A DNA stretch of 42,550 nt. Origin: a virus (Duplodnaviria; Caudoviricetes). Every line of letters starts with the position of its first letter. Position 1 is the stretch's first letter. Below, piece by piece: positions 298 through 42,498 of this stretch. Below the pieces are notes generated by a model. The model ran no database searches and was not told the origin of the DNA. It was given only the letters and a program-made list of their open reading frames with translations. The DNA is taken from positions 1 through 42,550 of IMG/VR virus record IMGVR_UViG_3300024232_000025; one strand, 5' to 3'. A program made the translations under genes and the position numbers.

Positions 298-323
298 AAT
301 GGCTCAAAGTGTAATTATTACGG

Positions 324-3300
324 TTATCGCGGCCAAGTGCCGGGACGGAAAGCGCCTGATCTCTTAGCCCTATCTATCCCTCTATTGAAGATAGCATCCA
401 CCTGGGTATCCGTAACCTCACCATTGAAGGTAGAGCCCCTCAGGTCCACATTGACACTTGCATCAGTGCCAAGGTTAAGACCGGCATCAGTGACTACATC
501 CGCAGGGCCACCGCCAGCCACAGCCAATTGAGGTTGCAGAGTGATTCCAGGCATACCGCCATGGCCAATAAGGGCGTCCAACTTCTCACAGATCTGCTGG
601 TAGTAGTTAGTGGCTACGCCCCAGTTCCAGGCCATGAAGTCTGTCAGAGTATTGCGGATAACATGGCTGTCATTCAGGAGAGAATCACCCTGTTCCACAA
701 GTCCAATCTTCAGGTAACGCGTGTAGTTCTCGATCAGATCGAGCGTCTTATTCATCCCGGCCATCTGGAAGTTGCCGATCACTCCCGAGATAGCCGATAC
801 CACACCGGATACCATGCCCACTATGCTCGTGATGCTGGTGCTTACAGCCTTAGCCGCCGTACCTGCTACATCCGCAGTGCTTTTAGCTGCTGTGGCCGCA
901 GCATTAGCGGCTACTGTCGAAGCCTGAGTAATGCTGGCCGCTTGCTGCCCAGCACCAGCCGCAGCCGTGGCCGCTGAAGTGCCAACCCCACCCAGACTGA
1001 ACACCTTGCCAAGGGTGCTGGCCACCCCAGGCAGGGATAGTATCTCATCCTTGAGGGTCTTGAGCACCCCGTGGATAACTGTCTTGAGCATCTCGACTTC
1101 GAAGTCGTGCATGATGCCGCGCCAGAATGCCCAGAATTTGCCACCAGCTAAGATAGCCTCACCCACCTTGTCACCAAACTCATTCCAGAGCTTGGATACA
1201 TTCTTCTCAGTCTCCTTGAAGACAATGCCAAGCTCATGCTGCTTGTCAATCAAGGCTTGCTCCTTGACCTTCAGCATCTCAAGAGCAATCATCTGAGCGC
1301 TGTTAGACTTGCCCATCAGAGTATCAAGCTCCATCTGAGCCTGCATACGGCGGATGATCCTGTCAGTCACCGATACAATGCCACCACCATACTCACGCTC
1401 AAATTGGATCTTGTTCTGAAGTTGGCGGATCTCCTCTTCCCCACCATGGAGAATCTGAATCTGAGTCTTGAGAGAGCGTGCGGCCCTACGATCGGCCAAG
1501 TCAGCAAGCTGATTCTCCAGTGCCTCTTTCTTGGAGTAGTACTGGTTATCATTGCCACCCTTCTTGATGAGGATGTTTAGCTCTCGCTGGACTGCCTTCT
1601 CCTGGATATCGGCAATCTGATCATCGAGATCCTGTTCCAGCTTCAAGCGTTGGCTGGCGCTAATGGCCCCGATGCTTTCCTGGTATGCAATCTTCTGACG
1701 CTCAAGCTCTATCAGATTAGTCTGATGCTTGGCCTCCCCAGCCTCTTCAATCTGGATGGCCTTGAGCTTGTCATCGGTGATCTCTTGATTGCGCTTTGCC
1801 TCTTCCTTGTCGAAGTCAGCAAGCCCCGCAGTCAGGTTTTTCTGATACTCGTCATAGATCTTCTGCTGTTCTTTGAGAGACTTGGCCTCGCGGTTCTCCC
1901 TGTCAAAGGTGGCCTTCTGATCCGCCGCAGCCCTGCGAGAATTGGCAGCAGACATCTGGGCCTCAACCGTGGCCTCATACACTGAGGACTTCTTGGTTGT
2001 CTCAAGTGCAAGCTTCTTTAGCTCGTAGTTCTCCTGAATCTTGAGAAGCTTCTCGTTCTGTGCCAGCAGTTGGGCCTCAGCATCCTCAGCGCTGATCTTG
2101 TGGAGATTCTCCTCGTGCTTGATAGATTCAATCTCCATCTGCACCAGTGCCTCCTCTGCCTTCTTGGCAGACTCAAGCCGGATCTCCTGGATGCGGTTAC
2201 GCTCCTGTGCAGCACGTTCAGCCGCCGCCTTGCGCTTAGAGTCCGCGTCAGGATCTTCTACACTACCACTGCCCTTGAATCCCATCGCAGGGGCAGGAGG
2301 GGGCTTAGGTGGTGCTGGAGGAGTGCGCTGCCCTGTGAAGTACTTGTATGCAGCTTCGGCCAGAGCGATATAGCCCTGACTCAGATCGTGAACCGTGACA
2401 ATGGTATCCGCTATGACACCAGCAGACGCTTTGGCAGCGGGGGCAAGCACAGTGCCCATATCAATAGCTGCCAGTCTCGCAGCCTCACCCAGCTTATTAA
2501 ACTCCGTCTTGGCCGAGTCCATGCGGATATCGGCTACCTTCTGAGTGGTGCCAGCCGCATTCTTTAGCTGAGTCTCATAGTCCTTTAGAGTGCTGGACAT
2601 CCCCAGCAAAGCCTGAATGGACTGGTTAGTGCGGCTATTGAGATGCAACAGAGCTAGATCGTGCTGGATAGTCTCAGTGGACGCGCCATTGAACAGAGTC
2701 TCAAGCTCTCCCAGGATGACTGAGAAGTCCTTCATCGTGCCCGTGGAATCGTACAAGAGTTCCTTGTACTTCATCTGGTGGCCGTTAAGGGTGATTAGAA
2801 CGTCTTGGTACTTCTCGGCCTCACGGGGCAAGTCACGCAGGATCTGGATAAGCGCTGTCTGCTGCTGAGCCGCAGGGATGCCAGCCTTGGCCATAGTCGC
2901 CAAGATTGCCAAGCCTTCCTCAGCGGACTTACCAAGAATCTGGATAGCGCCCGCACCTTTGCCAGCGAGAGCCTTGGCGAACTGCTCACCTGTGCCCTGC
3001 GCAATCGTATCGGCCTTGAGCAACAGGTCAGAGATATGCTCGATGGACCCGCCAGAGCCCTTGAGAGCATTGAACACACTAGTGAGAGTCTCAGCCGCAG
3101 TGCTCACCTTCATGATGCCGTCAGCACTCGCAGTAAAGGCGAACTGCACTACAGCGGGCATGTCCTTGAGCGCTTCCTCTGTGGTTCTGCCCGCAGACTC
3201 CAGAGTGTAGAAGGCGTGTGCAATCTCAACAGAAGAGATGCCGTAAGCGACAGACAGGTCTTTAGCCGTCTTGATCATCTGAGTCTTTTGGAACTCAGTG

Positions 3301-4211: not shown

Positions 4212-4551
4212 ATATCTTCCTCTTCTTTATTTTACGGGCTTTATTGGCTGTCACACCCTTAAGAGCCTGCTTCAATTCCTTCCAGTTTCCGCCAGCCCCT
4301 CTATCGGGATCAGGTGTAATTATTACGGTTTTCTTCTGCGGCGGGTACTGCTGGAGCAATAGGTCTTCAGCCGTGAACGCCTTGTCACTGGTATTGGTAC
4401 GGCCTCGGTTAAGTTGATAGGACGCAGATTGAGCGACAAAGAAGTCCCTTGTTCTATCCCAGGTAAGCACCCTAACACGATAAAGGGCTGTGACCCGCGC
4501 TAGGGTTGACTTGTCAAACTCCTCAGAAGTCAGCCCCAAACACCGAGCCAC
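4198..4551 (-). CDS. tail assembly chaperone C-terminal extension (gpT-like, probably expressed by -1 frameshift)
   Basis: Lies between the chaperone and tape measure genes. Its frame is -1 relative to the upstream chaperone and stays open back to about 4596 (SWLQYWAVARCLGLTSEEFDKSTL). Confidence 0.75.
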   Translation of the reverse strand: MARCLGLTSEEFDKSTLARVTALYRVRVLTWDRTRDFFVAQSASYQLNRGRTNTSDKAFTAEDLLLQQYPPQKKTVIITPDPDRGAGGNWKELKQALKGVTANKARKIKKRKIYAKP

Positions 4552-5688: not shown

Positions 5689-6715
5689 ACCATTCCGCCT
5701 TAGGTAACTGCTGCCCTTCCAATAACTTAAGTATACCAGTGTCCAGCCCCCGCTTCTTCCACTTCTGTATCAGGTAGAGCTTACGGGAGACGAACATCTT
5801 GTCCAGGTCAATGCCCATGGCCTTAAGCTCAGGCCAAGACGAGTGGAGAGCGCGGTGCAGGTACCGCATCCCGCCAAAATAGCGGTTTTTGTAGCCTGCT
5901 TCTACAAGCTGGTAGTGGAGATCATCATCCTCATAACCCCAGCCCAGCCCGCCGAATGGCCCATCCTCATCGAAGCGTACGCCTTTCTGGAACATCTCAC
6001 AGCGGAACAGGCCGTACTGAGTCCAGGCGCACCGGATATCATTGCGGGTGCGCGACTCTGGGATCTCTACAAGATTGTGGGCACACTCCTCTCTCTTCTC
6101 CGAGAAGTTAGCAGAGTAGGCACCGATGACGCCTACGTCCCAGTGGCACTCCAGATAGCGAGTCATGGTATAGGCCGACAGAGGAACTATCTCGATGTCG
6201 CCGTCCATGAGCATCAGGTACTTGGAGCCCACCACTTTGACCGCAAAGTCGATGATGGCGTTACGCGCCTTGCATATCCCCTGATTGGTATTGAACCTAC
6301 CCAGATGGACATTGGATGGTAGAGTCTCACCGAACAAGCCCCGGATAGCTTCCCACGTGCCATCAGTAGACCCGTTGTCCATGATGCAGATATAGGGTAC
6401 AAGGCCGAGCTTGATAAGCCTGTTGGACTCTTCCACCAGTGCCATGACCCCCTCAACACTGATGTCTCGTGTGTTCCAGCACAAGTAGCCAAGTGTAATT
6501 ATTACGGTTTTTGGGGCATCCCCGTTCTGACTGTCCATGTACTTCTGGATATCCCCCTTGTATTCAGTGGTGATGCCATGCCCCTTGGCCTTGCAATGCT
6601 CCAACATCTTGACAATACAGCCCGCTCCAAGAGTGTCATAGGCACAGTCCACACACATACAGTGAGTCAGGCCCTTCCTCTGGCTTGTGTTCCAGGTGTA
6701 TTCTAGCTGCCCCAT
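5663..6715 (-). CDS. family 2 (GT-A) glycosyltransferase with N-terminal Cys/His module
   Basis: ICIMDNGSTDGT, NQGICKARN, LMDGD (DxD) and GWGYEDDD motifs. Confidence 0.88.
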   Translation of the reverse strand: MGQLEYTWNTSQRKGLTHCMCVDCAYDTLGAGCIVKMLEHCKAKGHGITTEYKGDIQKYMDSQNGDAPKTVIITLGYLCWNTRDISVEGVMALVEESNRLIKLGLVPYICIMDNGSTDGTWEAIRGLFGETLPSNVHLGRFNTNQGICKARNAIIDFAVKVVGSKYLMLMDGDIEIVPLSAYTMTRYLECHWDVGVIGAYSANFSEKREECAHNLVEIPESRTRNDIRCAWTQYGLFRCEMFQKGVRFDEDGPFGGLGWGYEDDDLHYQLVEAGYKNRYFGGMRYLHRALHSSWPELKAMGIDLDKMFVSRKLYLIQKWKKRGLDTGILKLLEGQQLPKAEWYVGPKANS

Positions 6716-7918: not shown

Positions 7919-8481
7919 GTGCTGGTTCGCTCCCAATCCTTCCAGATCTTCTCGCACCAGCTAGGACGGTCGTAGACCATCTCAACCATGTCAAACACGT
8001 TCTCCTCAAGCACTAAGTCACGCATAGCCTTAGCTGCCGCCCGCATCTCCTTGGCCATCGCGGGGCCGTCCGTCTGGAGATCGAGGATCTTGATCTTCTT
8101 AAGGATCAGGATCATGTTGACTGCCATAGCGTCTAGGCAATCGGCTGCAATGACTTTGGCATCGGCAATGTTACCGTCACTGTCGGTATTCACGTCGATG
8201 ATGTTTTGAATGGTCGAATCGAGAAGGATCACTTGGTCATACTGGAATGTGTAGTTTCCAGACGAAGCACCAGCGCCAAGTGTGATACGACCATTCTGAG
8301 GATCGGTGAGGGTAAATGCAGGAGCCGAGCCGCTTGGAGGTGTAATTATTACGGTTCCATCGACTACGGGGAAGTACACGGTCTGGAACGTCAGTTGCCC
8401 CGCTACCGCTACGATGACATCGCTATGGTACAGGGGCTGGTCCTGGATCAAGGATCGGATTTGGTCAATGAGAGACATCAC
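7915..8481 (-). CDS. head-tail adaptor protein
   Basis: IDQIRSLIQD...AADCLDAMA...LDLQTDGPAMAKEMRAAAKAMR pattern. First long gene after the capsid gene. Confidence 0.6.
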   Translation of the reverse strand: MMSLIDQIRSLIQDQPLYHSDVIVAVAGQLTFQTVYFPVVDGTVIITPPSGSAPAFTLTDPQNGRITLGAGASSGNYTFQYDQVILLDSTIQNIIDVNTDSDGNIADAKVIAADCLDAMAVNMILILKKIKILDLQTDGPAMAKEMRAAAKAMRDLVLEENVFDMVEMVYDRPSWCEKIWKDWERTST

Positions 8482-10313: not shown

Positions 10314-10363
10314 CGTTTGTTGCCTCCAAAAGTGTAATTATTACGGTCCCGAAGGCTTCCGCG

Positions 10364-11786: not shown

Positions 11787-13580
11787 CTAACGTTTCGCCC
11801 CCGGTAAAGGGGCACCTGAAGGCTTCGGAGTAGGCTTAGAGGCTGTTTTCATAGCTGCATCTGCCGACTTGAGAGCCGCATCTCCAAGCTCTTTCTTACC
11901 CTGAGCTACCAGATGCTCATCGTCCATCTTGTCCGCCGGATCAGCAAAGCCTTGCAGCACAGAGTCAGGATACAGCAGTTCTGTCATCCGCTGCGCATCC
12001 TCGCGGCCAAGAGCCTCAAGCAGCATCTCACAGACCACTTTACGGTCAGGGATGATACCCTCAGCGGCACTACCACCTAATGTTACAGCCTGGACAACCG
12101 AGCGAACACGATCGGTCACGTCGCGCTCAAGTATATTGGGGAACTCGATCTTGACGTTGGTGGTTTCACCTTCAGGTGGAATAACCGTAATTATTACGGT
12201 CCCGTCGAAGGAATCCCGTGTCATCTCGGCACTGTAGCCAGCCTTGTTGAGAACACCACCTGGAGCCTGAGCAGACCACTCAATCAATCGGGTGCAAAAG
12301 GCTTGTATGACCCCAGCCCACATGTCTTGACGAGAAACCATCTTAAGCTCAGTAGGACGATCAAGGGTGGTAGATGTGGCGAAGTTGCCAATGTCGGAGT
12401 CCCCGAGGAAGTGTTCAGGGGTATCTGACCCAGCCGCGACCATTGACCTGAGTGCGCGTGCCTCATCTGGACCTGTCGTAGATCCCGCTGTTTTAATCGG
12501 CTTGACATCTGCGGCCCCCGATAACAAGGCCCAAGATGCTGTATTAGTGGGCGGATTATTGTCAATCGCCCGCCCATTCTGGACCCCTGTCTTCATCCTG
12601 TTCTTGCTGGCAGCGACACCAGCTTTCCCAGGCAATCCCGATATTTGGTACGCGAGTCTGGCATAAGCGGCCAGAATTGTGGCAAAGTTCTCCAGAATGC
12701 GCTTGTAGCCCGTGGCCCAGCCAAATGCTGAGATAAGCTCAGGGCACCCGAAGCGCATCATGTCCAGCCCACCCGTCTTGAGATGGTAGGTGCAAGTGTC
12801 CCAGGCTATACGAGTGCCGTCGATATCGTACTTGCGGCGGGTAACTGGGTAGTAGTCCCAATCCGGATACAGGGTGTTCTCCTGTACAGTGTCCTGCATC
12901 ATCTGATCTTGGAGAAAGAAGCCCCCATTCGGGCCTCCAACGTTAGACACACGAGCATAAAAGCGGGGCTCTTTGGAGTCTTCAGGGTTGTAAATGATAC
13001 CTTGTATTTGGTCAAAGGGGAGGAGTCGAACGCGGGCAGTGCCGTTTTCCTTGTTCCGATAGAATATGAAGAACTGATTACCGTCAACCCGTTGCTGTCG
13101 CTCTCGCTCAGTCCAGGCATCCCCGATAATGCGTTGATTCTTCCTGTTATTGAAAAAGTCATCAAGCACCTTCTGCACATTGGGGTTCTCAGCGGTGATC
13201 TGCACGCCTCTGCCCCAGACATATAGCTCCTGCACCGTCACGACACGCTTGATTAGAGGATTGATCATGTACATGACACGGGAGAGCCCCACGATGCGCC
13301 TGAGAGTGGTACGGGTGAAATTGAAGGTAGCGTCCGCGCCATTCGCAAGCCAGCCACGATCCTCACCGGAGAAGGTGGCCTCAAGCTCACCAAAAGCAGA
13401 TTCCAGGACTTCCACCATCTTGCCCTTGAGCGCCTCTTGGGACGGCATACCTGAATCGCCATCCTTCACCATGAGAGCCTCTTCGGCCAGATCAGCAGTC
13501 GCAGTCATGTGATTTGCGCCCAATGACGCGCCAGCCCAAGCCCCTACGAGCTTATCGCGCAGTTGCTTTCCGAATGTCAT
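11787..13580 (-). CDS. portal protein
   Basis: 597 aa between terminase and protease genes. NPLIKRVV, VDGNQF and PEHFLGD-NFATS motifs. Confidence 0.85.
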   Translation of the reverse strand: MTFGKQLRDKLVGAWAGASLGANHMTATADLAEEALMVKDGDSGMPSQEALKGKMVEVLESAFGELEATFSGEDRGWLANGADATFNFTRTTLRRIVGLSRVMYMINPLIKRVVTVQELYVWGRGVQITAENPNVQKVLDDFFNNRKNQRIIGDAWTERERQQRVDGNQFFIFYRNKENGTARVRLLPFDQIQGIIYNPEDSKEPRFYARVSNVGGPNGGFFLQDQMMQDTVQENTLYPDWDYYPVTRRKYDIDGTRIAWDTCTYHLKTGGLDMMRFGCPELISAFGWATGYKRILENFATILAAYARLAYQISGLPGKAGVAASKNRMKTGVQNGRAIDNNPPTNTASWALLSGAADVKPIKTAGSTTGPDEARALRSMVAAGSDTPEHFLGDSDIGNFATSTTLDRPTELKMVSRQDMWAGVIQAFCTRLIEWSAQAPGGVLNKAGYSAEMTRDSFDGTVIITVIPPEGETTNVKIEFPNILERDVTDRVRSVVQAVTLGGSAAEGIIPDRKVVCEMLLEALGREDAQRMTELLYPDSVLQGFADPADKMDDEHLVAQGKKELGDAALKSADAAMKTASKPTPKPSGAPLPGAKR

Positions 13581-13606
13581 GACTGTAATTATTACGCTTT
13601 TGGCGA

Positions 13607-13996: not shown

Positions 13997-14097
13997 GCAT
14001 ACAGGGTACCAGCATAGTACTAGCGTTTCACCCCATTATGTGCCTTTTTTCACCAATCAGTACTAAGGTGAATCCCCTATTTCCGTAATTATTACGG

Positions 14098-15968: not shown

Positions 15969-15986
15969 AATCAGTTGCCATAATCT

Positions 15987-16018
15987 GTAATTATTACACT
16001 CTGCTATTCTAGTGTCAA
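15987..16018 (-). promoter_or_regulatory. putative sigma70-type promoter of the packaging/virion operon, with the -10 region inside a palindrome copy
   Basis: Minus strand reads TTGACA (16018-16013), then 16 nt, then TAATAAT. Confidence 0.55.
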
Positions 16019-17144: not shown

Positions 17145-17358
17145 CCAGGGTACCTACCGTAATTATTACAGTACTGGTACCCGCTCGGACAGCCCGCTTC
17201 GCGTGCAGTCCTCGCTCCGCTCGTCCAGTACAGGGCTCTGGGGGATTGCGAAGATCCCGGTATTTGCTGCGTAAGCAGCAAAGAGGGATCGAAGCGGGAG
17301 GTATCGTGTGAATCCCCCCTTCCCTCTCTCTTGGAACTCTCTCCCAACCCCCCTTCTT

Positions 17359-17387
17359 ATTATATTGTCAAATTCAACTTCTGTCAA
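17359..17387 (-). promoter_or_regulatory. perfect consensus sigma70 promoter facing the LuxR-type gene
   Basis: Minus strand: TTGACA (17387-17382), 17-bp spacer, TATAAT (17364-17359). Confidence 0.85.
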
Positions 17388-17531
17388 GAATTATTATTTT
17401 CTGGGTATTTTACGGTTGAAAACCGTAATAATTACAGTGGTTTAGGGTATTTTGGCCTATTTCGTACGGATTCTGGTCGATTTTTCTTGCAATTCTCTGA
17501 ATTTCGCCTTACTCTTGGATCAGGAGGCGAT

Positions 17532-18122: not shown

Positions 18123-18558
18123 AGAACCTCCGATTCGATCGTACTGTAATTATTACGGTTTTGCTGGATATTGGTTAGTCTGAAGATAACCTCCCCCTCA
18201 CCTCTTTTGCGCTGGAGTCCCGCCCGCTTTCATGTGACTCCCAAAACATCTATTAGGAGATTCCCTGATATACGTACTCGGGGCAATCCCTTATTACCAA
18301 CTGTAATAATTACACTTCATACACGTGTACATTTGCGAAGTGGCCGTTTACGGCCACTGAGCACCCAGGCACCCGGATATATGCGGAGCGGTGCACCGTG
18401 CGCACCTACCGACCTCTGCGTCACAAGAAACGGCACTCTACGGTGACTCAGTGCGGAGTGTCCGCACCACTTTCCGCACTTGAGACACACTCCTATGCCG
18501 AGTGGACAGTAGACTAACAGCTAGAAAAATCAGAAAAGTAGCACCACAGAAAAGTGTG

Positions 18559-18719: not shown

Positions 18720-19345
18720 TAAACAAAACACGCAAACGGATAGAGGCACCCTAAGGGCAGGACTACTCTTAGGGACACTAACGGTAAGGGCGGGAGACGA
18801 GATTCGCGCCACGCGCTAGGTACAGTGGGGAGATAAGCTATGGGCTCCTCTGCGCGATACATACACTACTACCCTGTGTGGAGAACTAACCCGAACGGGA
18901 CCACAGGGTACGGTGTCAAATACTACCAAGACGTGCTACCGAGTCTGATACGGTGGATGGACTAGTACCGAGAGATCCTCTTACGCTTAAGCGTGGGGAT
19001 ACCAGCGTGCGTAGAGCGGGTGTTTAGACTACGCATAAATCCTAGCGATGAGTTAGGTTTACTGAGAGCACGGGGCGAGAGCTTAATTAGCCGTGCACAC
19101 AGAACGCGGGGATACTAGAGATCATGACTTGCTGATTGATTAAATGGGCAAGGTAGTGGAATAGTGAACGGATCAAGTGACTTGGTTGCATTGAACGCCT
19201 AACACCTGCAATGACAGTCTACAGACTGAGCACGCGTTAGGGTAGTAGACAGGCCAATATCGAATAGATCTAGGAGACAGCCACGATAAAGATAATCGTA
19301 ATTATTACACTTTGAGCGAGGGCGCTAGTAAAGGCCCTCGCTTGT
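18720..19345 (+). ncRNA. candidate large structured non-coding RNA (about 620 nt)
   Basis: No credible ORF. Dense run of stems with G-U pairs, ending in a terminator-like hairpin at 19314-19343. Confidence 0.5.
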
Positions 19346-20175: not shown

Positions 20176-20203
20176 CCGTAATTATTACAGTTTGGAGGAT
20201 TCA

Positions 20204-21175: not shown

Positions 21176-21222
21176 CTCGCTTGCTAGCCGTAATTATTAC
21201 GGTCTAGCACTGAGAGGTGCTT

Positions 21223-22598: not shown

Positions 22599-22683
22599 CG
22601 GAGCGGGTACCAGAGTTACAGGCTAGAGGGCGCTGAGAAGTGGCCCTCAATGACTGTAATTATTACGGTCGAAAAGGAGAAGT

Positions 22684-23929: not shown

Positions 23930-24109
23930 ATGTTCAAAGCGGTCATAGGGCTATACGCGGGGGCTTTTATGTTGCTCCTAGCCCCCTATGTGCTCACTGA
24001 CCTATTCCGCAACCGAGTGGTGAGGTTGATATTCTTATTGGCTGTGCTGGTAAGTCTGCTGATCTCTACCACTCTAACCGTAATAATTACAGGGAGGACA
24101 AAGAAATGA
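23930..24109 (+). CDS. small two-helix membrane protein
   Basis: GGAGGT RBS, ATG at 23930. Two hydrophobic segments. Confidence 0.6.
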   Translation: MFKAVIGLYAGAFMLLLAPYVLTDLFRNRVVRLIFLLAVLVSLLISTTLTVIITGRTKK

Positions 24110-24300: not shown

Positions 24301-24359
24301 GTAGGCTTCGGGCCAACCGTAATTATTACGGTGCGGCCCCGTGGCACACTCTAAATACA

Positions 24360-24946: not shown

Positions 24947-25023
24947 TCAAGTTTGACTCATAGGCACAGGCGTAATAATTACACTTTTTTGCTAAAGTGT
25001 TGATAACGCTCTGTCGATTTCTG

Positions 25024-25100: not shown

Positions 25101-26390
25101 ATGAACACTCAAATTATCAATCTTACGCCCGCTGACATTCTGGCGAATAGCAATATCCGTTTCGGTCTGAAAAAGGTCCGTGTAACGGGTCTGGCCGAGG
25201 AGATCAAGTCCTTGGGCTACGTTCACACCAATCTCACGGTGGAACCGTTGGCCGAGGCTGGACCGAACGGTGAGTCCTATTTGCTAGTGGATGGCCACTA
25301 CCGCCGCGCATCGGTGGAACTGCTGGCCAAGTCGGGACTGGCAATCGAGTTGCCCTGTGAAGTTGTGGAGATGGGCACGGCTAACGCTCGTGTCGCGCAT
25401 CAGATCTCCAAGAACTACAGCAACGAGCAGATGTCACCCATGGATATGGCGGTAGCCATTGACCGCTTGCTCAACCCCCCCGAGGGTGAGGAGCCCATGA
25501 AGAAAGTGGAGATCTGCGCCCTGTTCCCCAGGTCCGGCGGTCGCAAGGGTATTGCCACTACCCAGCCCTTGAGCAACTCCATGCTCAACATCTACGTGTC
25601 TTTCCTCAAGTTCCCGAAAGACATCAAGACCCTGATTCACGAGGGGCGTATCGGCGTGGCGGACGCCTACAGGCTCACCAAGAAGGACAAGAGCGAGTGG
25701 CCCGCTCTGACCAAGAAGGCTGAAGAGGCCCTCGAAGCTTCGGCGGGTGAACTGGAGAAGCTGGAGGAGCAAGTCCAGGCCGAACAGAAGAAGGCCGAGG
25801 AAGCCGAAGTCAAGGCCAAGCAGGACGCTGAGGCTCTCACCAATGCTCAGAAGGTCCTGGAAGCTGCCAAGGCCGAGCGTGACGCCAAGGTCAATGCCGC
25901 TGCCGAAGCCTTCAAGGCCAAGGCTGCTGTACCCGCTACCGACAAGGACAAGCTCAAGGTCGCCGTGGAGCACTTCAAGGCGGCTGAAGCCGAGGCCACT
26001 GCTGCCGACAAGGCCGCAACTCAGGCTAAGAAGGACGCGGACAAGCTCCAACAGGCCGTGGAGCGCAATCAGAAGCTTGCAGCCGAGCGCAAGGCCAAGC
26101 TGGAACAGGCCCGCAAGGATCAAGCGGCCAAGACCAACGGTAAGCTTGCCGTGGGCAAGGCCATCGAATCCGCCGAGAACAACGGCAAGGTACCGCTGAA
26201 GGGACCGCAGATTGTCGCTCTCCTCAATCAGTTGGCCCTGCCGGGATTCCCCAAGGTCCAGAAGATCTTCATGGCCGTGCAGCGTTGCATTGCCAGTGAT
26301 ATCACCGATGCCCAGTTGACTGCTGAACTGGCCTACATCACCGGGGAGCGCAAGGAACGCCCGAAGCACATGCCGAAGGAAACGAAGTAG
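25101..26390 (+). CDS. ParB/Srx-domain protein with long Ala/Lys/Glu coiled coil
   Basis: NIRF...LAEEIKSLG...YLLVDGHYRRAS...N.SNEQMSPMDMAVAI matches the ParB N-terminal domain. An HTH-like segment follows, then about 170 aa of coiled coil. Confidence 0.8.
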   Translation: MNTQIINLTPADILANSNIRFGLKKVRVTGLAEEIKSLGYVHTNLTVEPLAEAGPNGESYLLVDGHYRRASVELLAKSGLAIELPCEVVEMGTANARVAHQISKNYSNEQMSPMDMAVAIDRLLNPPEGEEPMKKVEICALFPRSGGRKGIATTQPLSNSMLNIYVSFLKFPKDIKTLIHEGRIGVADAYRLTKKDKSEWPALTKKAEEALEASAGELEKLEEQVQAEQKKAEEAEVKAKQDAEALTNAQKVLEAAKAERDAKVNAAAEAFKAKAAVPATDKDKLKVAVEHFKAAEAEATAADKAATQAKKDADKLQQAVERNQKLAAERKAKLEQARKDQAAKTNGKLAVGKAIESAENNGKVPLKGPQIVALLNQLALPGFPKVQKIFMAVQRCIASDITDAQLTAELAYITGERKERPKHMPKETK

Positions 26391-26705: not shown

Positions 26706-26745
26706 TTAAACTTCAAGTGTAATTATTACGGTTATCTTTAGGCAC

Positions 26746-27833: not shown

Positions 27834-27875
27834 TTTTCTCTCTCTCTCTCTTTTCCTGAAGTGTAATAATTACGG

Positions 27876-29558: not shown

Positions 29559-29642
29559 GTTTTCTCTCTTTCGGAAACTGTAATAATTACGGCTGGGAGC
29601 CCGTTACAGCCCCCAGCCACGGGACCAACCAACTCCAACTAA

Positions 29643-30179
29643 CTACACATTCGGTACGAATTCGCCGAACGTCACTTCACCGATCGCCGCGCCCTGAGCC
29701 GGATCGTAGATGTCCAGTATCCCAGTGTTAACGATGTCGGTCTTGCCTTCACCCAGGTCACCATCGGCGTCAACCGTAATAATTACGGATTGCACCGGGG
29801 TGTCTTCGGGAACAGCCGCAGTCACGATCCCGCAACTGAGGCCATCGGCCGAAGGGGTGAGGGTTACAAATTCGGCGGGTTCTGCGGACCAAGTGGGCGG
29901 ACCATCGGTGCGGCCCTTGCCACCAGTCGCGTTCTTGTAGGCTACCGTTGCGGTGCCCGTAGAGTTCATCGGTACTTTCATCTGAACGTTTACTCCTTCT
30001 TTTGTGATTCCCTCGAACGTTACCACCAGCACTCCACTTACGGCTGGCGGCAGGGTAACAGCAGCTAAAATCTCGTCTAACTTGACAGTGTGCTCAGCGA
30101 GGATCTTGTCCACCTGATCAAACCGCGCCATTATCCGATCTTCCATCTGCTGCATAGCTTCAAGTAACTCAGCAAACAT
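29643..30179 (-). CDS. acidic protein with N-terminal coiled coil and Ig-like domain
   Basis: PTWSAEPAEFVTLTPSADGLSC...ITVDADGDLGEG pattern. GAGGTG RBS. Confidence 0.6.
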   Translation of the reverse strand: MFAELLEAMQQMEDRIMARFDQVDKILAEHTVKLDEILAAVTLPPAVSGVLVVTFEGITKEGVNVQMKVPMNSTGTATVAYKNATGGKGRTDGPPTWSAEPAEFVTLTPSADGLSCGIVTAAVPEDTPVQSVIITVDADGDLGEGKTDIVNTGILDIYDPAQGAAIGEVTFGEFVPNV

Positions 30180-31196: not shown

Positions 31197-31882
31197 TATT
31201 TCACCGCCTCTATATTGAAGTGTCGCCCACCTGGAGAGGCAGAGTACCTGATAGCCTTGATCTTGAGGTTAGCCGCCGCCAGAAGTTGGAGCACCTCCTC
31301 ATACGAGTAGTGCCAGATATGCTCGTCCTTCCACTCGTCTAATGCGTGGTGACGGTTGTATACGGGAATGTCGATGAGCCTGGAGTAGTGCTTAGTGAGC
31401 TTGCCCCAGCTTGTCTGATCGGGCGTGGAGAGGTATAGAGTGCCATTGACCCGCATAGACTCCTCAATCTTCATGAGGGTGAGTAGTGGGTGAAAGTTGA
31501 GATGCTCCAGCACTTCCGTAATTATTACGGTGTCATACGTGTTGGGTGCCAGTGTCGGGCAGTTGCGCTCCACGTCGCCCTCAAGGGCAATGAGCTTGTA
31601 CTCGTCAATCACGGCCTGAGAGATAAAAGGTACACGGTCGAGCGTGGTCACCGAATTAGCGCCTAGCTTGGAGGAGTAGCAGGCAAGCGTACCATAGCCA
31701 GGACCAATGTCCAGCACATCCCCCAGACCGCCTACATTGTTCACCCGCAAATAGTACAGCCATACTGGAATAGAGCCAATGTAGCCGCCCTCTTCGCCTG
31801 AGTACTTCTGGGTGTAGTAGTGCTCCTGTCCATATAAGGTCACTAGTCTCTGTTGCACTTTCCTAAACAGCCTTGTCATCAA
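31196..31882 (-). CDS. class I SAM-dependent methyltransferase
   Basis: VLDIGPGYG, YDTVIITEVLEHL, GTLYLSTP and HIWHYS motifs. Confidence 0.88.
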   Translation of the reverse strand: MMTRLFRKVQQRLVTLYGQEHYYTQKYSGEEGGYIGSIPVWLYYLRVNNVGGLGDVLDIGPGYGTLACYSSKLGANSVTTLDRVPFISQAVIDEYKLIALEGDVERNCPTLAPNTYDTVIITEVLEHLNFHPLLTLMKIEESMRVNGTLYLSTPDQTSWGKLTKHYSRLIDIPVYNRHHALDEWKDEHIWHYSYEEVLQLLAAANLKIKAIRYSASPGGRHFNIEAVK

Positions 31883-32325: not shown

Positions 32326-32371
32326 AAGTGTAATTATTACGGTCAGTCCAGGATCGGGGTCACCTCACCCC

Positions 32372-32879: not shown

Positions 32880-33050
32880 TCAAACGTTTGTCTGGTTGTC
32901 AAGAGGTCCAAAAGTATGGTCTGGGGTTTCTTCGACCGTAATAATTACAGGTGTTGGAGGGCCATTCACGATTTTTTCGAGACGGTAGTACTCATCCAAC
33001 AGGTGCCGTATGCTGAGAGGCTCCCCAGCTTTGTTAGACATGTCGCTCAT
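32880..33050 (-). CDS. hypothetical protein
   Basis: ATG at 33050 overlaps the polymerase stop. Confidence 0.45.
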   Translation of the reverse strand: MSDMSNKAGEPLSIRHLLDEYYRLEKIVNGPPTPVIITVEETPDHTFGPLDNQTNV

Positions 33051-35295: not shown

Positions 35296-35592
35296 TTACC
35301 CTGCTTTAGTGTGGCTAGATCTACTTCTTTGTTCGTGGGCACTTTGGATCTCCTTTTTCGTAATTATTACGGTTTCTGCTGCTTCAATGTCTGCTTTCAG
35401 CTTGTCCCAATCCAGCGGGACCATGCCATCCCAGCGCAAGGCTGGGCAGAAGGTAAACAGACAATACCCTTCCGTGTGGATGATGGGGTACAGTAGGCCG
35501 AGCTTACGGAGAGCATACCAGCGTGCCATCATCTTGCATTCGGCTTCTGTCCACTCTCCTAGCATTGTCTTGCGTGGTAGCTGTGACTTCAT
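35296..35592 (-). CDS. hypothetical protein
   Basis: ATG at 35592 overlaps the upstream stop. Confidence 0.55.
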   Translation of the reverse strand: MKSQLPRKTMLGEWTEAECKMMARWYALRKLGLLYPIIHTEGYCLFTFCPALRWDGMVPLDWDKLKADIEAAETVIITKKEIQSAHEQRSRSSHTKAG

Positions 35593-36962
35593 GCCGCATC
35601 CCTCCACTGCTCCTGAGGCTTACGTCTCACTACTCGCTCCATGGCCCTAATGATGGGCCGTAGCCTTAATGTGGCGTCCGCGTCACGACAGGCATAGAAC
35701 AGCTTCTCGGCAAAGGGCACGTGGGTGATACACTTCCCAGGCCAAGGACCTTGCACCTTCTGTACCTCCTCGTGATGCATCTCCCAGTTCTTAGTCCACT
35801 GCTCAAAGACATCCTTCTCAGGATTCTTGGCATAATAGGTCCAGAATGTCTTGAGCTTGGTCCTGAAGCCCTGTGGCTTGTAGGTTTTCCAACTGCCGTC
35901 ATCGGCCCTGACAAGTTCCTCGTTTGGCTTACTCCACTCCTCACACATGGCATTGCGGTAGTAGTCCAGGACGAACTCACGGGAATATGGAGTCACGAGA
36001 TCATCGAAGTCCTGCATTTTCATGCCAAGCTCACGCCACGCTAACGCCTTGAGTCCTTGCGGCAAGTTACCCAAGTGGAACACCTTGACCATAGTGTCAA
36101 CAATCCGCTGGTAATTGAACCTAAGCCCCATCTCTTCCACCACTTCACCGTCGAACAGCCAATTGTGGAAGAGGATTTCTCCCTGCCAGATGTCAAGCCA
36201 CTGCTGGAATCTATCCAGGACCACACGGTTTTCCATACGTATAAGCCTGCCAGTACCAGGACGCACAGATAGAGTAAGGCAATCAGGGCCACCTCCACGG
36301 CGAGTCTCAGTATCCACCCCCATGGGACCAAGACTATGGCCAGTAAGATAATCATCAAGTTGCTGAACATTCTCAACCTCCAGATAATCGGGATCAGGAT
36401 ATGGATCAGTTGGGAGCCTTAGCTCTCCCGCGAACATCTTACGTAGCTTGGCCCAGTCAGTGCGGATGTGCAGCATCTTCTTGGGCTCATGGATGCCCCC
36501 CGCTGGATGCCACATGGGGAAGGCAGTACCAAAAGCCGTCTCATAGGGCTGGCCGTGGTGCATGTCCAGGTCAATGTTCTTGTCCAGTGCGAGACAGGCG
36601 AAGGCTCCCATGGGCACCAGCAGCTTGGGCTTGCTGCGTTCTATCAGCGGGTACAGGTGGTGCTCAGCGCAGGAGAACAGCAGATCCTTATGAGGCTGCT
36701 TGTCCATCTTGAGCTTGTGCTTGGGCGTGTCTGGGTAGCATTGGATAGCGTTGACTATCCTCACCTGAGGCCGTCTGATGCCTGCCAGAGGCATGTAATG
36801 GTCATTGACTTCCCGCCCAGTGGGGCCGATGAAGACTTCCCGCTTGTCGTTCTCCTTGGCTCCAGGAGCCTCACCAATGAACAAACCGTAATTATTACAC
36901 TCTGGGCCTGAGCCCTTCACGCAGGCGTACTTACCGGGACACATTGGGCAGCGTTCACTCAT
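35589..36962 (-). CDS. uracil-DNA glycosylase-like domain fused to PolA 3'-5' exonuclease domain
   Basis: FIGEAPGAKE...FIGPTG and MWHPA are family-4 UDG-like. GVDTET, FHNWLFD and YACRDADAT match ExoI-III. Likely start MSERC at 36962. Confidence 0.85.
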   Translation of the reverse strand: MSERCPMCPGKYACVKGSGPECNNYGLFIGEAPGAKENDKREVFIGPTGREVNDHYMPLAGIRRPQVRIVNAIQCYPDTPKHKLKMDKQPHKDLLFSCAEHHLYPLIERSKPKLLVPMGAFACLALDKNIDLDMHHGQPYETAFGTAFPMWHPAGGIHEPKKMLHIRTDWAKLRKMFAGELRLPTDPYPDPDYLEVENVQQLDDYLTGHSLGPMGVDTETRRGGGPDCLTLSVRPGTGRLIRMENRVVLDRFQQWLDIWQGEILFHNWLFDGEVVEEMGLRFNYQRIVDTMVKVFHLGNLPQGLKALAWRELGMKMQDFDDLVTPYSREFVLDYYRNAMCEEWSKPNEELVRADDGSWKTYKPQGFRTKLKTFWTYYAKNPEKDVFEQWTKNWEMHHEEVQKVQGPWPGKCITHVPFAEKLFYACRDADATLRLRPIIRAMERVVRRKPQEQWRDAA

Positions 36963-37514: not shown

Positions 37515-37515
37515 A

Positions 37516-38079: not shown

Positions 38080-38840
38080 CCTCGTATCTCCCTTACAACT
38101 TTCTTGGCTGTGGCTGGCCCAACGCCTGGGAGAGTGAGCCAGTCTTCCTCTGTTGAATTGGCCAGAGAGAACCCAGTCTTGAACAGCTTCTCCGCTTCCT
38201 GACTGTGCACCACACCGATGCCAGTTAAGTCTGTGGCCCACTTGCGCACCAGCGTGGCCTTGCCCGCAAGCGTAGGGATTGCGAACTTCTGCAACTCCAA
38301 CAGGCTTGTATGCTGGTGCCACGGCTTCTGGAAATACTGGTACATCTCACAGATGTTGTAGGCCGTGCCGAATAGATCGTTGGAATACGTAATAATTACA
38401 CCTGAGATCGCAATACTCATCAGGTAGCGGTACAGCTTGGAATAGAGCACCTTACGATTCCCAGCAAGCTTGAGCGGTCCCCAAGACTGCCCACTGCGGT
38501 ATCCCTGCATGAGGGTGCCATCGTAGCCGTTGCCATTCCCAGGAGCCCACATCCCCTCCAGGCAGATGTAGGCGCAACCCCTGGAATACATGCCGAGCAT
38601 CCCCGTGCGCTGGTGATCAGAGAAGCGGGCATCGTCAATGCAGTTAAGCATGTCATTGAGAGTCTTGCGCTCAATGCCAATGGCTACAGGGCCGTCCTTG
38701 CCCTTCCCCTCAAAGCAGACATCCCCATAGATGAGATCAGCAGTCTCACAGGGGATGCCCAGCTTGCGGATGATAGGCTGTAGTAGCTCATTGCCTTTGC
38801 CGTCACTGCCACTGCCCCGCTTGTAGTCGATATAGATCAC
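38070..38840 (-). CDS. ERCC4/XPF-family nuclease with C-terminal HhH
   Basis: GDVCF...IERKTLND motif and LPGVGPATAKK HhH. Confidence 0.82.
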   Translation of the reverse strand: MIYIDYKRGSGSDGKGNELLQPIIRKLGIPCETADLIYGDVCFEGKGKDGPVAIGIERKTLNDMLNCIDDARFSDHQRTGMLGMYSRGCAYICLEGMWAPGNGNGYDGTLMQGYRSGQSWGPLKLAGNRKVLYSKLYRYLMSIAISGVIITYSNDLFGTAYNICEMYQYFQKPWHQHTSLLELQKFAIPTLAGKATLVRKWATDLTGIGVVHSQEAEKLFKTGFSLANSTEEDWLTLPGVGPATAKKVVREIRGWK

Positions 38841-40458: not shown

Positions 40459-40481
40459 GTGATCTCCTAAAACCGTAATAA

Positions 40482-41366
40482 TTACGCTTTGAAGCCCCAC
40501 CGCTGTGGCGGCACACCGGGAAAGATGTTGTCCACCAGACCCCTGAAGTTGCAGTCACTCCCCCAAAGCTCCAGCCCCACCAAGCTCATATCATGCTTGC
40601 ACTTGAGAATCTCGATGCCCCACTCCATGGGGAAGCTCACCATCTTGCCGCCCACCTTCTCCACTCGGGCGGGCTTGAACTTGTGACGTAGCTGCAAGTC
40701 GAACAGGTAGCCCTGATCCTTGAAGCCCTGCCGCTCCTTGCGCCCTGTCTTAGTCCTGAGATCATTGCCCATCTCATCCTTGGCCTTGGTGCCATCGGGC
40801 TTGAGTACGTCCTCGTACTCGTCCTTGACCTTGTTAGAGAAGAACACGATCTTGCCAGAGTCCCAGGCGCGGCAGATCTGTGCCCGCTTCTCAGCGTACG
40901 GCGCAGCGTAGCGAGTCTGCGGGTAGATCTGTGTTGTCTTGCCGAAGTGGGCAAGGATGTGAATCTCCCAGAAGTCAGAGTCACCATCCATGAAGACCAC
41001 GGTGGAGTCAGGACTGGCCAAGCAATCATAGAAGCTATCCCGTATGCTGGCGTAGTACTTGCCGTATTCTGTGGTGTTGGCAGTGCCCTGCATAGGCACA
41101 TGGAACACCTTAACGCCCACTCTCAGGTTGCGGGCCTTGGGCGCGTTAGGATTGTCAAACACTCCCTGGAAGTTGCGGTCAACTGAGAGCATGTGAATCG
41201 TGCCTGGAGTGGACAAGGCGAACTCAGTCTTACCGGAGTCCGTCTCACCCTCCTGCCCTATGAGTAGGGGCTTAAGAAGATAGCCGCCGGGAAGCATAAT
41301 CTTGCCCCGTGTCTTTGAGGGCGACACAAAGCCCGCTCGTTCGAATGATGCTGGTAGTGATCCCAT
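40482..41366 (-). CDS. P-loop NTPase (AAA_24/Sak4-like)
   Basis: Walker A GETDSGKT and Walker B VVFMD. Located near an exonuclease. Confidence 0.7.
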   Translation of the reverse strand: MGSLPASFERAGFVSPSKTRGKIMLPGGYLLKPLLIGQEGETDSGKTEFALSTPGTIHMLSVDRNFQGVFDNPNAPKARNLRVGVKVFHVPMQGTANTTEYGKYYASIRDSFYDCLASPDSTVVFMDGDSDFWEIHILAHFGKTTQIYPQTRYAAPYAEKRAQICRAWDSGKIVFFSNKVKDEYEDVLKPDGTKAKDEMGNDLRTKTGRKERQGFKDQGYLFDLQLRHKFKPARVEKVGGKMVSFPMEWGIEILKCKHDMSLVGLELWGSDCNFRGLVDNIFPGVPPQRWGFKA

Positions 41367-41372
41367 AGCTCC

Positions 41373-41825
41373 TCAGAAATTGGTGAATATACTGTCGTCC
41401 ACTTCGGGCAACTTGGTTACTGTCATTGCGTGCTTCTTGCGCCACTGCTTAACCCTGACTGCCTCTAGCTTTGTCTCGAATAGCGCGGTGCTGGCAGTGG
41501 CCCCAGCATTAAGGCGCAGCACACTGAGCACCTCGCGTACAGGATCAGAGCCTAGAATTGCTTGCAGGGCTATGCGCTGTAGTGGTCCAAGAGCCACATC
41601 CAGCTTGATGTACTCATGCTGGTTCCCATTCTTGCTTCGAGTAGTGAGAGTGGCTTGCACTCCCCACCCGTTCTGCTCCAGCACTTCTAGCACACGCCCA
41701 CGCTGGGTGCTTTCCTTATCCAGGTCCAGGAATAACTCCTGAGATTCCGGCAAGAAGCACACCAGCCCCATTGAGGCTGCAATGGCCTCAACCTCTTCCG
41801 CGTTACGTTGAATCACCTCACTCAT
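41373..41825 (-). CDS. hypothetical protein
   Basis: LFLDLD...SKNGNQH...RIALQAILGSDPVRE. In-operon position. Confidence 0.65.
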   Translation of the reverse strand: MSEVIQRNAEEVEAIAASMGLVCFLPESQELFLDLDKESTQRGRVLEVLEQNGWGVQATLTTRSKNGNQHEYIKLDVALGPLQRIALQAILGSDPVREVLSVLRLNAGATASTALFETKLEAVRVKQWRKKHAMTVTKLPEVDDSIFTNF

Positions 41826-42498
41826 AAATCTGCCTCACTCTATGCTCCTCCTCCAGAGCCAGCATGTATTCAAAGTCTCGCTTGTAGTCCGCAAGCAGAG
41901 TCCAGTTCTCATCAAGTTCCTCCTGGGTGAACTCTATTTCCCATACAACACGCTGGGGCTTGATAGGGAACTTGTAATCACCGCAGAGGAACCAACAGTG
42001 CATCACGGCAAACCGTGTGCCAATAGCAATGCAGTACGCCTTAAGCTGGGCCAGCCACATCCATTGGGAGGATAGATCCCCCACAGTCTTGGTGCTCTTG
42101 TAGGTGGCCTTAACCTCGTGCACTCTCCTGCGCAGCTTTCTGCTGAGGTTATACTCAGAAAGCGTAATAATTACGGATTCATCCTCCCCGTCATGCGTCA
42201 TGTACACGCCATCGTAGTACTTCTCTCCTGGGTGATCCACCACGCCGTAGTGGAGTAATATCTCTGGGATGTAGTACTGCTCAATGGCGAGTCCGATACT
42301 GATACGGAGAATAGCGGTAGGGTCTGTAATGGTGCGGACATCCACAAGGGATAGCTCCTCTGCCCATTCAGGCTTAAGGATGCCCGCCTCAGTTGCGATA
42401 CAACGGATGATGCTGGACACGTGCGTGCCCTCTGACCGAGGAGTCTTTGACGGCGGAAGGAATAGCGGATAGCTATCTGTGTTTACGGTGACTATCAT
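41818..42498 (-). CDS. PD-(D/E)XK exonuclease-like protein
   Basis: HVSSI, THDG, HEVKAT and QLKAYC motifs. Confidence 0.72.
   Translation of the reverse strand: MIVTVNTDSYPLFLPPSKTPRSEGTHVSSIIRCIATEAGILKPEWAEELSLVDVRTITDPTAILRISIGLAIEQYYIPEILLHYGVVDHPGEKYYDGVYMTHDGEDESVIITLSEYNLSRKLRRRVHEVKATYKSTKTVGDLSSQWMWLAQLKAYCIAIGTRFAVMHCWFLCGDYKFPIKPQRVVWEIEFTQEELDENWTLLADYKRDFEYMLALEEEHRVRQIYE

Follow-up and report, generated by a model that had tools for sequence, protein, structure and literature searches.

Palindromic sites dispersed over a phage genome and an orphan ParB-family protein as their likely reader

Introduction

Which protein reads a short palindrome that recurs from one end of a phage genome to the other, and what would it do there? 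The question is raised by a viral DNA of 42,550 nucleotides, analysed here over its whole length and called the window below. Its initial annotation had described the array as a candidate undescribed system, which is overstated, as a 34-copy dyad repeat in Cluster O phages (PMC4351075) and the KorB/OB system (PMC13768133) precede it. KorB binds a 13-bp palindrome of 6-1-6 layout at sites dispersed on RK2 (PMC13768133). The Cluster O (Corndog) repeat, as described in PMC4351075, is a 17-bp dyad whose arms do not vary; its 34 copies lie between and within genes, are unoriented and keep their place. The account given there of these phages includes an orphan ParB-like gene, and no integrase, parAB or stable lysogens. 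Its authors regarded gp90 as one of three candidate binders, thought a role in genome stability unlikely and did not commit to a function. Phage genomes with dense palindrome arrays were thereby on record in 2015, with neither reader nor function assigned (PMC4351075), and orphan ParBs are common on mobile elements and phages, with a DNA target that is mostly unknown (PMC12704722). The clade studied here connects the two, and predictions at the level of single residues result. A literature search, in which subscription journals were thinly covered and supplements lay outside, found no published assignment of a dispersed phage array to a phage ParB; KorB, N15, a ParB-fold survey and Cluster O surfaced.

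Results

An exact scan of the window confirmed the 32 copies of GTAATWATTAC first noted, which span 311-42174, and 100 dinucleotide shuffles of the window yielded none (mean 0.00, maximum 0). A recount on the + strand reproduced the split into 21 copies with central T and 11 with central A, and the two 17-mers that had been quoted as examples, at 12184 and 24316, are correct. Conserved symmetric flanks had also been proposed. This holds for the bases bordering the 11-mer, which are Y/R in 32/32 copies, making the 13-mer YGTAATWATTACR the invariant site; the longer ASY...RST flank is preferred rather than fixed, with A at -3 in 48/64 half-sites and S at -2 in 61/64. A single one-mismatch variant occurs within the window. 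Thirteen terminase-related records outside the clade defined below contain 0 copies of the GTAATWATTAC motif. Gaps between sites average 1350 bp (CV 0.59), and the spacing is more even than random (P about 0.001). Orientation of the central base does not follow the direction of transcription: leftward regions contain 15 T and 7 A, the rightward region 4 T and 2 A.

About two thirds of the sites are intergenic; 11 of the 32 lie in annotated open reading frames, and 10 of these 11 encode the peptide V-I-I-T. Among the virion genes (coordinates are those of the unstranded 13-mers), site 1 (310..322) directly follows the tape-measure stop, a place at which the relative G001 also has a site, site 5 (10333..10345) separates the head-decoration and protease genes, site 7 (13584..13596) is immediately ahead of the portal start, and site 8 (14084..14096) directly follows the TerL stop. 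Sites 2 (4315..4327, in ORF 4198-4551), 3 (6494..6506, in the glycosyltransferase gene), 4 (8341..8353, in ORF 7915-8481) and 6 (12186..12198, in the portal gene) all read VIIT. Site 9 (15986..15998) shares bases with the -10 of a leftward promoter predicted ahead of TerS, and site 10 (17158..17170) is immediately ahead of the LuxR gene. Sites 11 (17424..17436), 12 (18145..18157), 13 (18302..18314) and 14 (19297..19309) follow; the last three fall in non-coding regions, and the G001 counterpart of site 14 is a variant with a changed arm. Beyond site 15 (20177..20189), directly after the RNase III stop, come intergenic sites 16 (21189..21201), 18 (24079..24091) and 19 (24318..24330), site 17 (22655..22667) ahead of ORF 22684, site 20 (24971..24983), and site 21 (26718..26730) at the convergence of the early and replication operons. 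Sites 22 (27862..27874), 23 (29579..29591), 26 (32329..32341) and 28 (35359..35371) are again intergenic. VIIT is read once more at sites 24 (29775..29787, in ORF 29643-30179) and 25 (31517..31529, in the methyltransferase gene), both missing from G001, at site 27 (32937..32949, in ORF 32880-33068), at site 31 (40474..40486, in the 5′ end of ORF 40249-40500) and at site 32 (42163..42175), which falls in the part of the conserved nuclease-like gene (41818-42498) that encodes a variable loop. Site 29 (36887..36899) lies in another frame of the UDG/exonuclease gene and is translated C-N-N-Y-G, and site 30 (38388..38400) is within the span of the ERCC4-like ORF 38070-38840.

Across eight genomes with the GTAAT spelling, V-[IM]-I-T peptides are encoded as a site in 81/81 cases, against about 2.5% predicted from codon usage; the peptide is absent from the two genomes with other spellings. 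At the nuclease loop, 8/12 clade members have the site, G046 has its own mixed spelling, read V-I-F-T, and the site is lost in G045 and G048. Coding sites sit in the gaps between intergenic ones (P 0.004 in the window genome, below 0.05 in 8/10 genomes), as would be expected from a coverage function. Evenness did not reach significance against a coding null in G044 and G045, nor against a simple null in G003, G042, G044 and G048. Positional conservation was confirmed in the relative G001, which has about 75% nucleotide identity: of 24 alignable sites, 21 keep their place there, and the base at their centre varies.

Two predicted sigma-70 promoters lie next to sites. The first, at 15990..16018 on the - strand, belongs to the terminase/head operon and is a consensus match only (11 of 12); the second, at 17359..17387 on the - strand between sites 10 and 11, matches 12 of 12 consensus positions, with site 11 about 36 bp upstream of its -35. 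G001 also has a 12-of-12 predicted promoter, 26 bp from a site. Over 10 genomes most strong predicted promoters are more than 100 bp away from any site. In 13/15 genomes the parB start has a site no more than 270 bp away, compared with half-gaps that average 500-1100 bp; in the window this is site 20, a candidate autoregulatory site 118 bp upstream of the start. Palindromic sites dispersed over the genome, with one ahead of parB itself, correspond to the layout of the KorB/OB type.

The gene in question, the likely reader of the sites, is an orphan of the ParB/KorB family at 25101..26390 (+ strand, 429 aa). A single-sequence search with its N-terminus returned nothing from PDB sequences or viral contigs and one unannotated record among GenBank phages, so that a profile was required to find its relatives. 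Pfam ParB_N matched 4/37 clade members, none above the cut-off, and is therefore useless as a measure of absence. Profile A1, from an alignment omitting P0024, matched Spo0J, ParB, Noc and KorB in PDB, with a best E of 2e-11 (KorB, 5e-4), and the AlphaFold model (pLDDT 90.6) matched Noc, ParB and KorB in Foldseek (E 4e-8). At a 50% identity threshold the family comprises 232 clusters with E no higher than 1e-30, and a search of the ESM Atlas returned ParB clusters only.

By profile alignment, residues 1-125 (25101..25475) form the ParB N-terminal nucleotide-binding domain. Model and alignment place a helix-turn-helix with a GGRKG wing at residues 135-170 (25503..25610), with helices 135-141 and 159-170, the alignment spanning Spo0J profile positions 29-206; the G002 orthologue has an HTH_ParB match. 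DSSP of the model then gives two very long helices (197-276 and 282-344, about 150 aa, 25689..26132) between the DNA-binding and C-terminal domains. The protein is predicted to dimerise through the helical C-terminal domain (363-417, 26187..26351): the complex prediction scored 0.58, versus 0.00 for the best control, with the interface at 363-417, at least 30% of contacts agreeing in the dimer runs and pLDDT of at least 70. The mark set for this score is reached by 20/30 solved homodimers and 1/23 single chains. Taken alone, the C-terminal domain gave no clear fold match (best Z 4.7). From a reading of its sequence, the protein begins directly with the ParB fold and has neither an N-terminal extension nor a copy of the (L/F/I)G(K/R)G(L/F/I) motif by which ParB proteins bind ParA (motif as given in PMC12704722). 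Residues N18, R20, G65, R68 and N105 are kept in 40/40 family members. The window copy, which reads K104 and N108 where the family has E104 in 31/40 and R108 in 37/40, appears to have a worn CTP motif. Since, in addition, the family reads G-H-Y-R at the G-E-R-R of Spo0J, a CTP clamp is putative.

Array and ParB were found to occur together, the association that the initial annotation had proposed to check. An array of the same family (7-44 sites, spaced one per 1.3-3.0 kb) is present in each of the 15 viral records that encode a close homologue of ParB, while 15 near-complete outgroup records show neither a match to A1 nor, in their 11-21 kb loci, a family array. Near-complete clade genomes have 25-48 sites each, and ParB is present in 8/8 clade records at least 90% complete. 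Two distant ParBs pair with other palindromes (16 sites in G005, 4 in G049). When loci were recruited by PolA, at least two family sites formed the top palindrome in 27/28 close loci, the lone miss being a 1.8-kb locus, and in 0/23 distant ones; when recruited by the nuclease, the top palindrome was of the family type in 30/30 close and 0/15 distant loci. These two sets overlap in contigs, and both alignments were built from ParB-recruited genomes. Eleven clade fragments (15-59% complete) contain sites, ParB being absent from the part covered. G004, 77% complete, has 24-28 copies of another palindrome and an integrase, with no ParB detected. Orphan or long ParB-HTH genes occur without an array in Kiko, ctl617 and Adler, as do weak ParB-HTH matches in G014 and L342. 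In a motif scan of viral contigs that covered 23 of 64 parts, the matches listed were mostly single chance matches.

The array marks a clade of soil and sediment phages that share a replication module and ParB, not virion genes: most array phages have none of the window's virion genes, yet share ParB and the replication genes, and in G047 portal and coat are P22-like. The co-occurrence is that of one clade, by shared ancestry. ParA (PF13614) was found in 0/12 records, including 0/9 near-complete ones, where a control matched 14/14, and the same 12 records (9 near-complete) gave no match to a tyrosine integrase or a resolvase. The clade polymerase was found on one contig among 185,579 prokaryote genomes (GTDB); this contig, in a Patescibacteria MAG, is probably a binned phage. 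Protein-cluster look-ups for a host returned no taxa. The sequencing runs listed with matches are soil metagenomes, with no RNA run among them. The best TerL match in cultured relatives is 46%.

Within the clade the spelling of the site varies (GTAAA, GTAAC, GTAGT, GTAGC, GTATA, and forms with 2-bp spacers) and shifts along with changes in ParB. All ParB columns of 32 proteins were scanned for co-variation, columns being chosen post hoc; the scan omitted G005, G049 and G072 (distant), G057 and L242 (2-bp spacer) and L215 (1-2 sites), and the near-duplicates L228, L238, L221 and L229 and the fragment L246 were dropped from the counts. For GTAAA half-sites the best column is residue 161 in the recognition helix, His in 4/4 versus 0/28; for C at half-site position 5 (GTAAC) it is residue 155, Glu. 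For the central W, residue 145 in the wing ranks third, and the top column, 355, falls outside the helix-turn-helix. Permutation-corrected support is 0/150 for the GTAAA column if L239 (one AAA half-site of 10) is counted and 10/150 without it, and 8/150 for Glu155. On a tree from which the helix-turn-helix was excluded, independent pairs agree in 2/2 cases for His161, 1/1 for Glu155 and 3/4 for residue 145, with none opposite, and no sign test on them reaches 0.05. Exceptions are G046, G047 and L245, without Pro145 yet with central S, and G054, with C but without Glu155. As spelling shifts with the DNA-reading part of ParB, ParB likely docks on the sites.

Discussion

The proposal that the palindromes are sites for a dimeric protein acting genome-wide is supported, and among the candidates first named the ParB-domain protein (25101) has become the clear lead, by co-occurrence and co-variation. 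Judging from sequence, we consider it very likely that the 32 palindromes are bound by the phage's own ParB, as its loading sites. That ParB slides out from them under nucleotide control, coats the genome and damps some promoters is a further proposal, which we somewhat favour. A ParB dimer, joined by its C-terminal domain, would recognise each half-site through the helix-turn-helix and spread outward from every site until the whole phage chromosome is covered, promoters close to sites being damped by the spread protein. From gene position only, ParB may be expressed early in infection. The coat could serve a KorB-like mixture of genome organisation and repression, a purpose we favour over timing, organising or shielding alone.

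The closest likeness is KorB/OB of the IncP-1 plasmid RK2, where, in the descriptions of PMC11790492 and PMC13768133, a ParB-family dimer with an N-terminal nucleotide domain, a helix-turn-helix, a long linker and, at its C-terminus, a domain for dimerisation acts on 13-bp 6-1-6 sites along the roughly 60 kb of the replicon, partly at promoters and partly distant from them. Unlike RK2, the replicon here is a phage with its own PolA, without ParA/IncC or an N-terminal ParA-binding tail; sites come evenly, one per 1.3-3 kb, and are written into proteins; long helices totalling about 150 aa make up the linker, and the helix-turn-helix has a GGRKG wing. The clamp-locking partner, CTP use and repression are properties of KorB, with which the phage ParB is compared by sequence and model. 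N15 likewise combines a phage ParB, SopB, with multiple inverted-repeat sites, and SopB spreading silences a nearby promoter (PMC7205306); as presented there, the N15 sites number four, SopA serves as a partner and the prophage is a plasmid, whereas the present phages have 25-48 sites per near-complete genome and no ParA. The stoperators of Cluster A are also many repressor-type sites distributed genome-wide, in and between genes, but according to PMC4351075 they are asymmetric and oriented with transcription in temperate phages, in contrast to the unoriented dyads found here.

Could ParB instead be a static repressor or roadblock at each site, stoperator-like and without sliding, timing or silencing transcription site by site? 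The operators of phiC31 are conserved inverted repeats. The window copy lacks E104 and R108, site 9 lies on a predicted -10, site 11 has a perfect promoter 36 bp away, parB is preceded by site 20, and about two thirds of sites are intergenic, all of which fits such a network. However, most strong predicted promoters in 10 genomes are more than 100 bp from sites, coding sites fill gaps, sites are unoriented with respect to transcription, and most family members keep E-N-x-x-R; moreover, near-complete genomes give no integrase match, and therefore offer no obvious prophage state to silence. We regard this alternative as unlikely. It is more doubtful still that the grid is a distributed centromere or tether, whose long helical arm would bring in a host partner, be it ParA, SMC or one in the membrane, so as to position or partition a non-integrated genome in a carrier state. 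The four inverted-repeat centromere sites of N15 SopB (PMC7205306), nine near-complete genomes without integrase and a 150-aa helical insert free of an assigned role speak for it; against it, none of 12 records encodes ParA, the protein lacks the N-terminal extension and the (L/F/I)G(K/R)G(L/F/I) motif, 185,579 prokaryote genomes yielded just one contig with the clade polymerase, and a single cluster of sites would be enough for partition.

Readers other than ParB were also weighed. A small helix-turn-helix protein of the XRE type, whose gene (G001:43086-43472, beyond the window) precedes the helicase, is improbable as the reader in the role of a multi-operator repressor: this Cro/C1-type protein is present in 8/9 large clade genomes, but its recognition helix varies widely among genomes of the same spelling, where S158, N159 and N163 of ParB are nearly fixed, G045 has 41 sites and no XRE match (a small protein, ribbon-helix-helix by eye, stands instead), and spelling tracks ParB residues. 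The XRE protein could be a KorA-like partner. A host protein in general is unlikely because spelling changes with phage ParB residues. Among such proteins a Fur/Zur-family regulator comes to mind, as the Bacillus-group Zur box is described as holding the same 13-bp core (PMC2706843). Its AT-rich outer arms, in an inverted repeat of about 20 bp, are however not conserved at the sites, whose own arms are invariant, with near-matches almost nil. Regulon sites are not known to be of this invariant-arm, near-match-free type, and in relatives both spellings and 2-bp spacers change with the phage ParB; we give this regulator very little credence. Least credible is a role of LuxR (16743-17144) or the small terminase (15501-15968) as the reader, whether in late transcription or in packaging. 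Both have helix-turn-helix domains and adjoin sites 9 and 10, but TerS homologues are restricted to G001, G002, G003 and G006 and LuxR orthologues to G001 and G006, a LuxR/GerE match is missing from 4/7 near-complete clade genomes, and the same site persists in array phages whose head modules are unrelated. The distribution of homologues led us to reject the packaging-site, TerS and LuxR readings.

Returning to ParB as the reader, its clamps, if the proposal is true, have a partition-free role during phage infection, and the natural protein-site pairs of shifted specificity would make a new set for the study of DNA recognition and for locus labelling. We also suggest, as a speculation, a ParB-based "chromatin" of non-integrating phages, in which a long-armed dimer on a lattice of sites, held at even spacing by selection to the point of writing V-I-I-T into proteins, would coat or condense the infecting genome without ParA, a residue code (145, 155, 161) would mark the DNA of a lineage as self against host defences or co-infecting relatives, and the same principle might explain the Cluster O repeats. 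With the latter the likeness, as far as PMC4351075 describes them, extends to about 30 unoriented copies with invariant arms, intergenic and coding, placed alike in relatives, and to an orphan ParB-like gene without integrase or ParA. The Cluster O sequence is different (7-3-7), as are the ParB subfamily (19% identity) and the C-terminal half, and here residue-base co-variation indicates ParB as the reader. Corndog, a cultured phage, is a possible in-vivo model: 29 dyad sites were counted in the 40 kb examined, and gp90 aligned with A1 over the N-terminal domain and helix-turn-helix (hhalign 96%, E 3e-9; Spo0J, E 9e-9).

The site array

All 32 exact copies of GTAATWATTAC listed in the initial annotation were borne out, against none in 100 shuffles of the window. 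The bases flanking them are Y and R in 32 of 32 copies, so that a 13-bp 6-1-6 palindrome is invariant, and the window holds only one single-mismatch variant of the site. Gaps between sites (mean 1350 bp) are evener than random (CV 0.59, P about 0.001). Eleven sites lie within annotated ORFs, 10 of them being read as V-I-I-T; the third reading frame of the site would result in a stop codon.

In G001, a close relative with about 75% nucleotide identity, 21 of the 24 alignable sites were found in the same place, the central base being free. With mechanical gene calls, 81 of 81 V-[IM]-I-T peptides are encoded as a site in eight genomes using the GTAAT spelling, and no such peptide was found in two genomes of other spellings. 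One loop of a conserved nuclease-like gene holds a site in 8 of 12 members; in the G046 genome this site is in the genome's own mixed spelling, and it is lost from G045 and G048, whose sites are spelt otherwise. Coding sites even out the gaps, with P 0.004 in the window and <0.05 in 8 of 10 genomes. The array is real and strongly selected.

The window is the entire available record of a siphovirus-type phage, which encodes tape measure, capsid, portal and terminase proteins as well as a split family A polymerase. As a 53,556-bp contig on record also encodes proteins of this phage, the window probably lacks about a fifth of the genome. Within the 2.5-kb non-coding region, TGTGGAAA(A/T) occurs four times between sites 13 and 14, at intervals of about 21 bp (18571-18641); the repeat is one base off the DnaA box and marks a candidate replication origin.

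Distribution of the array and of ParB

The site or variants of it (TGTAATSATTACA, TGTAACSGTTACA) recur in terminase relatives (57-100% identity). The orphan ParB, a 429-aa ORF at 25101-26390 (+), gave 40 homologues in a first search, and 232 ParB clusters were counted at 50% identity (E at most 1e-30). Co-occurrence of motif and ParB, raised in the initial annotation, was then found in whole records (n=30): all 15 with a close ParB homologue carry the array, the density being one site per 1.3-3.0 kb. A distant ParB is encoded in two of the 30, both with other palindromes, and the 13 lacking a ParB match comprise one fragment of the window phage, two genomes with unrelated palindromes (G004, G026) and ten without array. 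No ParB was found in the near-complete records of the outgroup.

Array phages have in common the genes for ParB, polymerase, UDG-exonuclease, helicase, and ERCC4-like, AAA-like and nuclease-like proteins, and none of the window's virion genes is present in most of them. Recruiting loci by polymerase or nuclease produced the same split, the array being present in close loci and absent from distant ones. Since the array phages form one clade, co-occurrence alone cannot single out ParB.

Several genes of these phages deserve mention. Clade-wide, the family A polymerase is divided between two genes, one for the polymerase and another for UDG-like plus 3′-5′ exonuclease domains (33047-34540 and 35589-37130 in the window). 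The early region of the phage opens with an RNase III catalytic domain (151 aa, 19720-20175), which is also found in G001. Of the ORFs at 5663-6715, 31196-31882 and 39572-40252, the first encodes a GT2 glycosyltransferase within the virion operon, the second, outside that operon, a methyltransferase, and the third is glycosyltransferase-like by eye; such genes are also reported from the head operon of Cluster O phages (PMC4351075). The sole GTDB contig with the clade polymerase, L419, has 9 family sites in 15 kb and belongs to a Patescibacteria MAG; it probably represents a phage contig binned with the MAG, and does not prove the host.

The initial annotation had presented the array as an undescribed system. 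Arrays of this type have been published for Cluster O mycobacteriophages by authors who left reader and function open (PMC4351075). Corndog, a member of this cluster, is described as having 34 repeats, 29 of which lie in the 40 kb examined here; its gp90 and the window ParB are homologous in the N-terminal domain and the HTH. Our literature search for a genome-wide phage array assigned to an orphan ParB found no such paper.

In general, an orphan ParB does not imply an array, nor an array a ParB, because Kiko, ctl617 and Adler have long ParB-HTH genes and no array in the DNA fetched, and G004 has an array and an integrase with no ParB detected. The link is therefore claimed for the window's clade. 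Besides its integrase, G004 (loci L187-L189) encodes a sigma-70 factor and several small HTH proteins, and it carries 24-28 copies of CCTTGCAAGG. ParB and array are paired a second time, independently, in G005 (L190-L193), an unrelated phage of 62 kb in which 16 copies of ACCGAAAWTTTCGGT accompany a distant 396-aa ParB. Of two distant polymerase relatives, L341 has five copies of TTTAGANTCTAAA, a palindrome similar to the KorB operator, and L359 (from G072) has three of TTCTGASTCAGAA next to a distant ParB. G026 (L300-L301), a complete phage lacking ParB, has ten palindromes of a looser kind, CGCCA-N4-TGGCG, some of which form pairs with a distance of about 30 bp; they look like ordinary repressor operators.

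The reader of the sites

The profile of the ParB homologues matches Spo0J, ParB, Noc and KorB. In the predicted model, the ParB fold is joined to an HTH that bears a GGRKG wing, and two very long helices separate these from a small C-terminal domain. Residues 363-417 form the predicted dimer interface (complex prediction score 0.58, versus 0.00 for the control), which would correspond to the canonical ParB layout. In G001, a stand-alone 74-aa copy of the C-terminal dimerisation domain is encoded 1 kb upstream of parB (L180:2868-3092). It could poison ParB dimers or tune them; no such copy was found in the window.

Two other HTH proteins, LuxR (16743-17144), proposed as a reader in the initial annotation, and TerS (15501-15968), were ruled out by their distribution among array phages. 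A small XRE HTH protein, whose gene precedes the helicase (G001:43086-43472), is found in 8 of 9 large clade genomes and might read the sites instead. This is unlikely: its recognition helix varies though the site spelling is constant, and G045 lacks it yet keeps 41 sites.

The initial annotation's other candidate, ParB, is the best supported, through co-variation of its residues with site spelling. When all ParB columns were scanned in 32 proteins, the best column was residue 161 (His) for GTAAA half-sites and residue 155 (Glu) for C at half-site position 5, residue 145 ranking third for the central base. His161 genomes (G045 among them) have A in 82/84, 6/6, 13/32 and 1/10 half-sites, Glu155 genomes (among them G003) have C in 34/34, 4/4 and 10/30, and where Pro145 is lost the centre is W in 32/32, 34/41, 6/6, 3/3 and 14/14 sites, with three exceptions. 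Independent pairs are too few for significance, and the columns were picked post hoc. Carriers of the co-varying residues lie on separate branches, with 0 independent pairs in the opposite direction. A site is located at most 270 bp before parB in 13 of 15 genomes. From these sequence comparisons, the phage ParB is very probably the reader.

Clade members L242, L329 (G057) and L389 have sites with a 2-bp centre (14-bp palindrome), and in the two of them that encode ParB, the recognition helix is preceded by S-P-M-S-N-A.

A possible function for the array

KorB is described as loading at OB, closing with CTP, sliding and repressing at a distance (PMC11790492, PMC13768133). By analogy, ParB would be loaded at every site and extend some 0.7 kb in either direction, so that the genome would be covered and promoters close to sites damped. 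Site 9 (15986..15998) overlaps a predicted -10, and a perfect promoter lies 36 bp from site 11 (17424..17436). The window ParB is not a member of a ParABS system, as it has neither ParA nor a ParA-binding tail. ParA, tyrosine integrase and resolvase were not found in 12 records, 9 of them near-complete, and ordinary partition or prophage silencing is therefore not indicated.

The main rival is a static repressor, with ParB sitting on its sites without sliding. Putative nucleotide use is the weak point of the sliding mechanism, as the ParB family has G-H-Y-R for G-E-R-R, and the window copy K104 and N108 in place of E and R; other family members, such as that of G038, keep E-N-x-x-R intact. Against a static repressor, the coding sites are placed so as to even out gaps, which a protein covering DNA outward from each site would need and a pure promoter-operator network would not. 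We infer that the array serves coverage of the genome by ParB.
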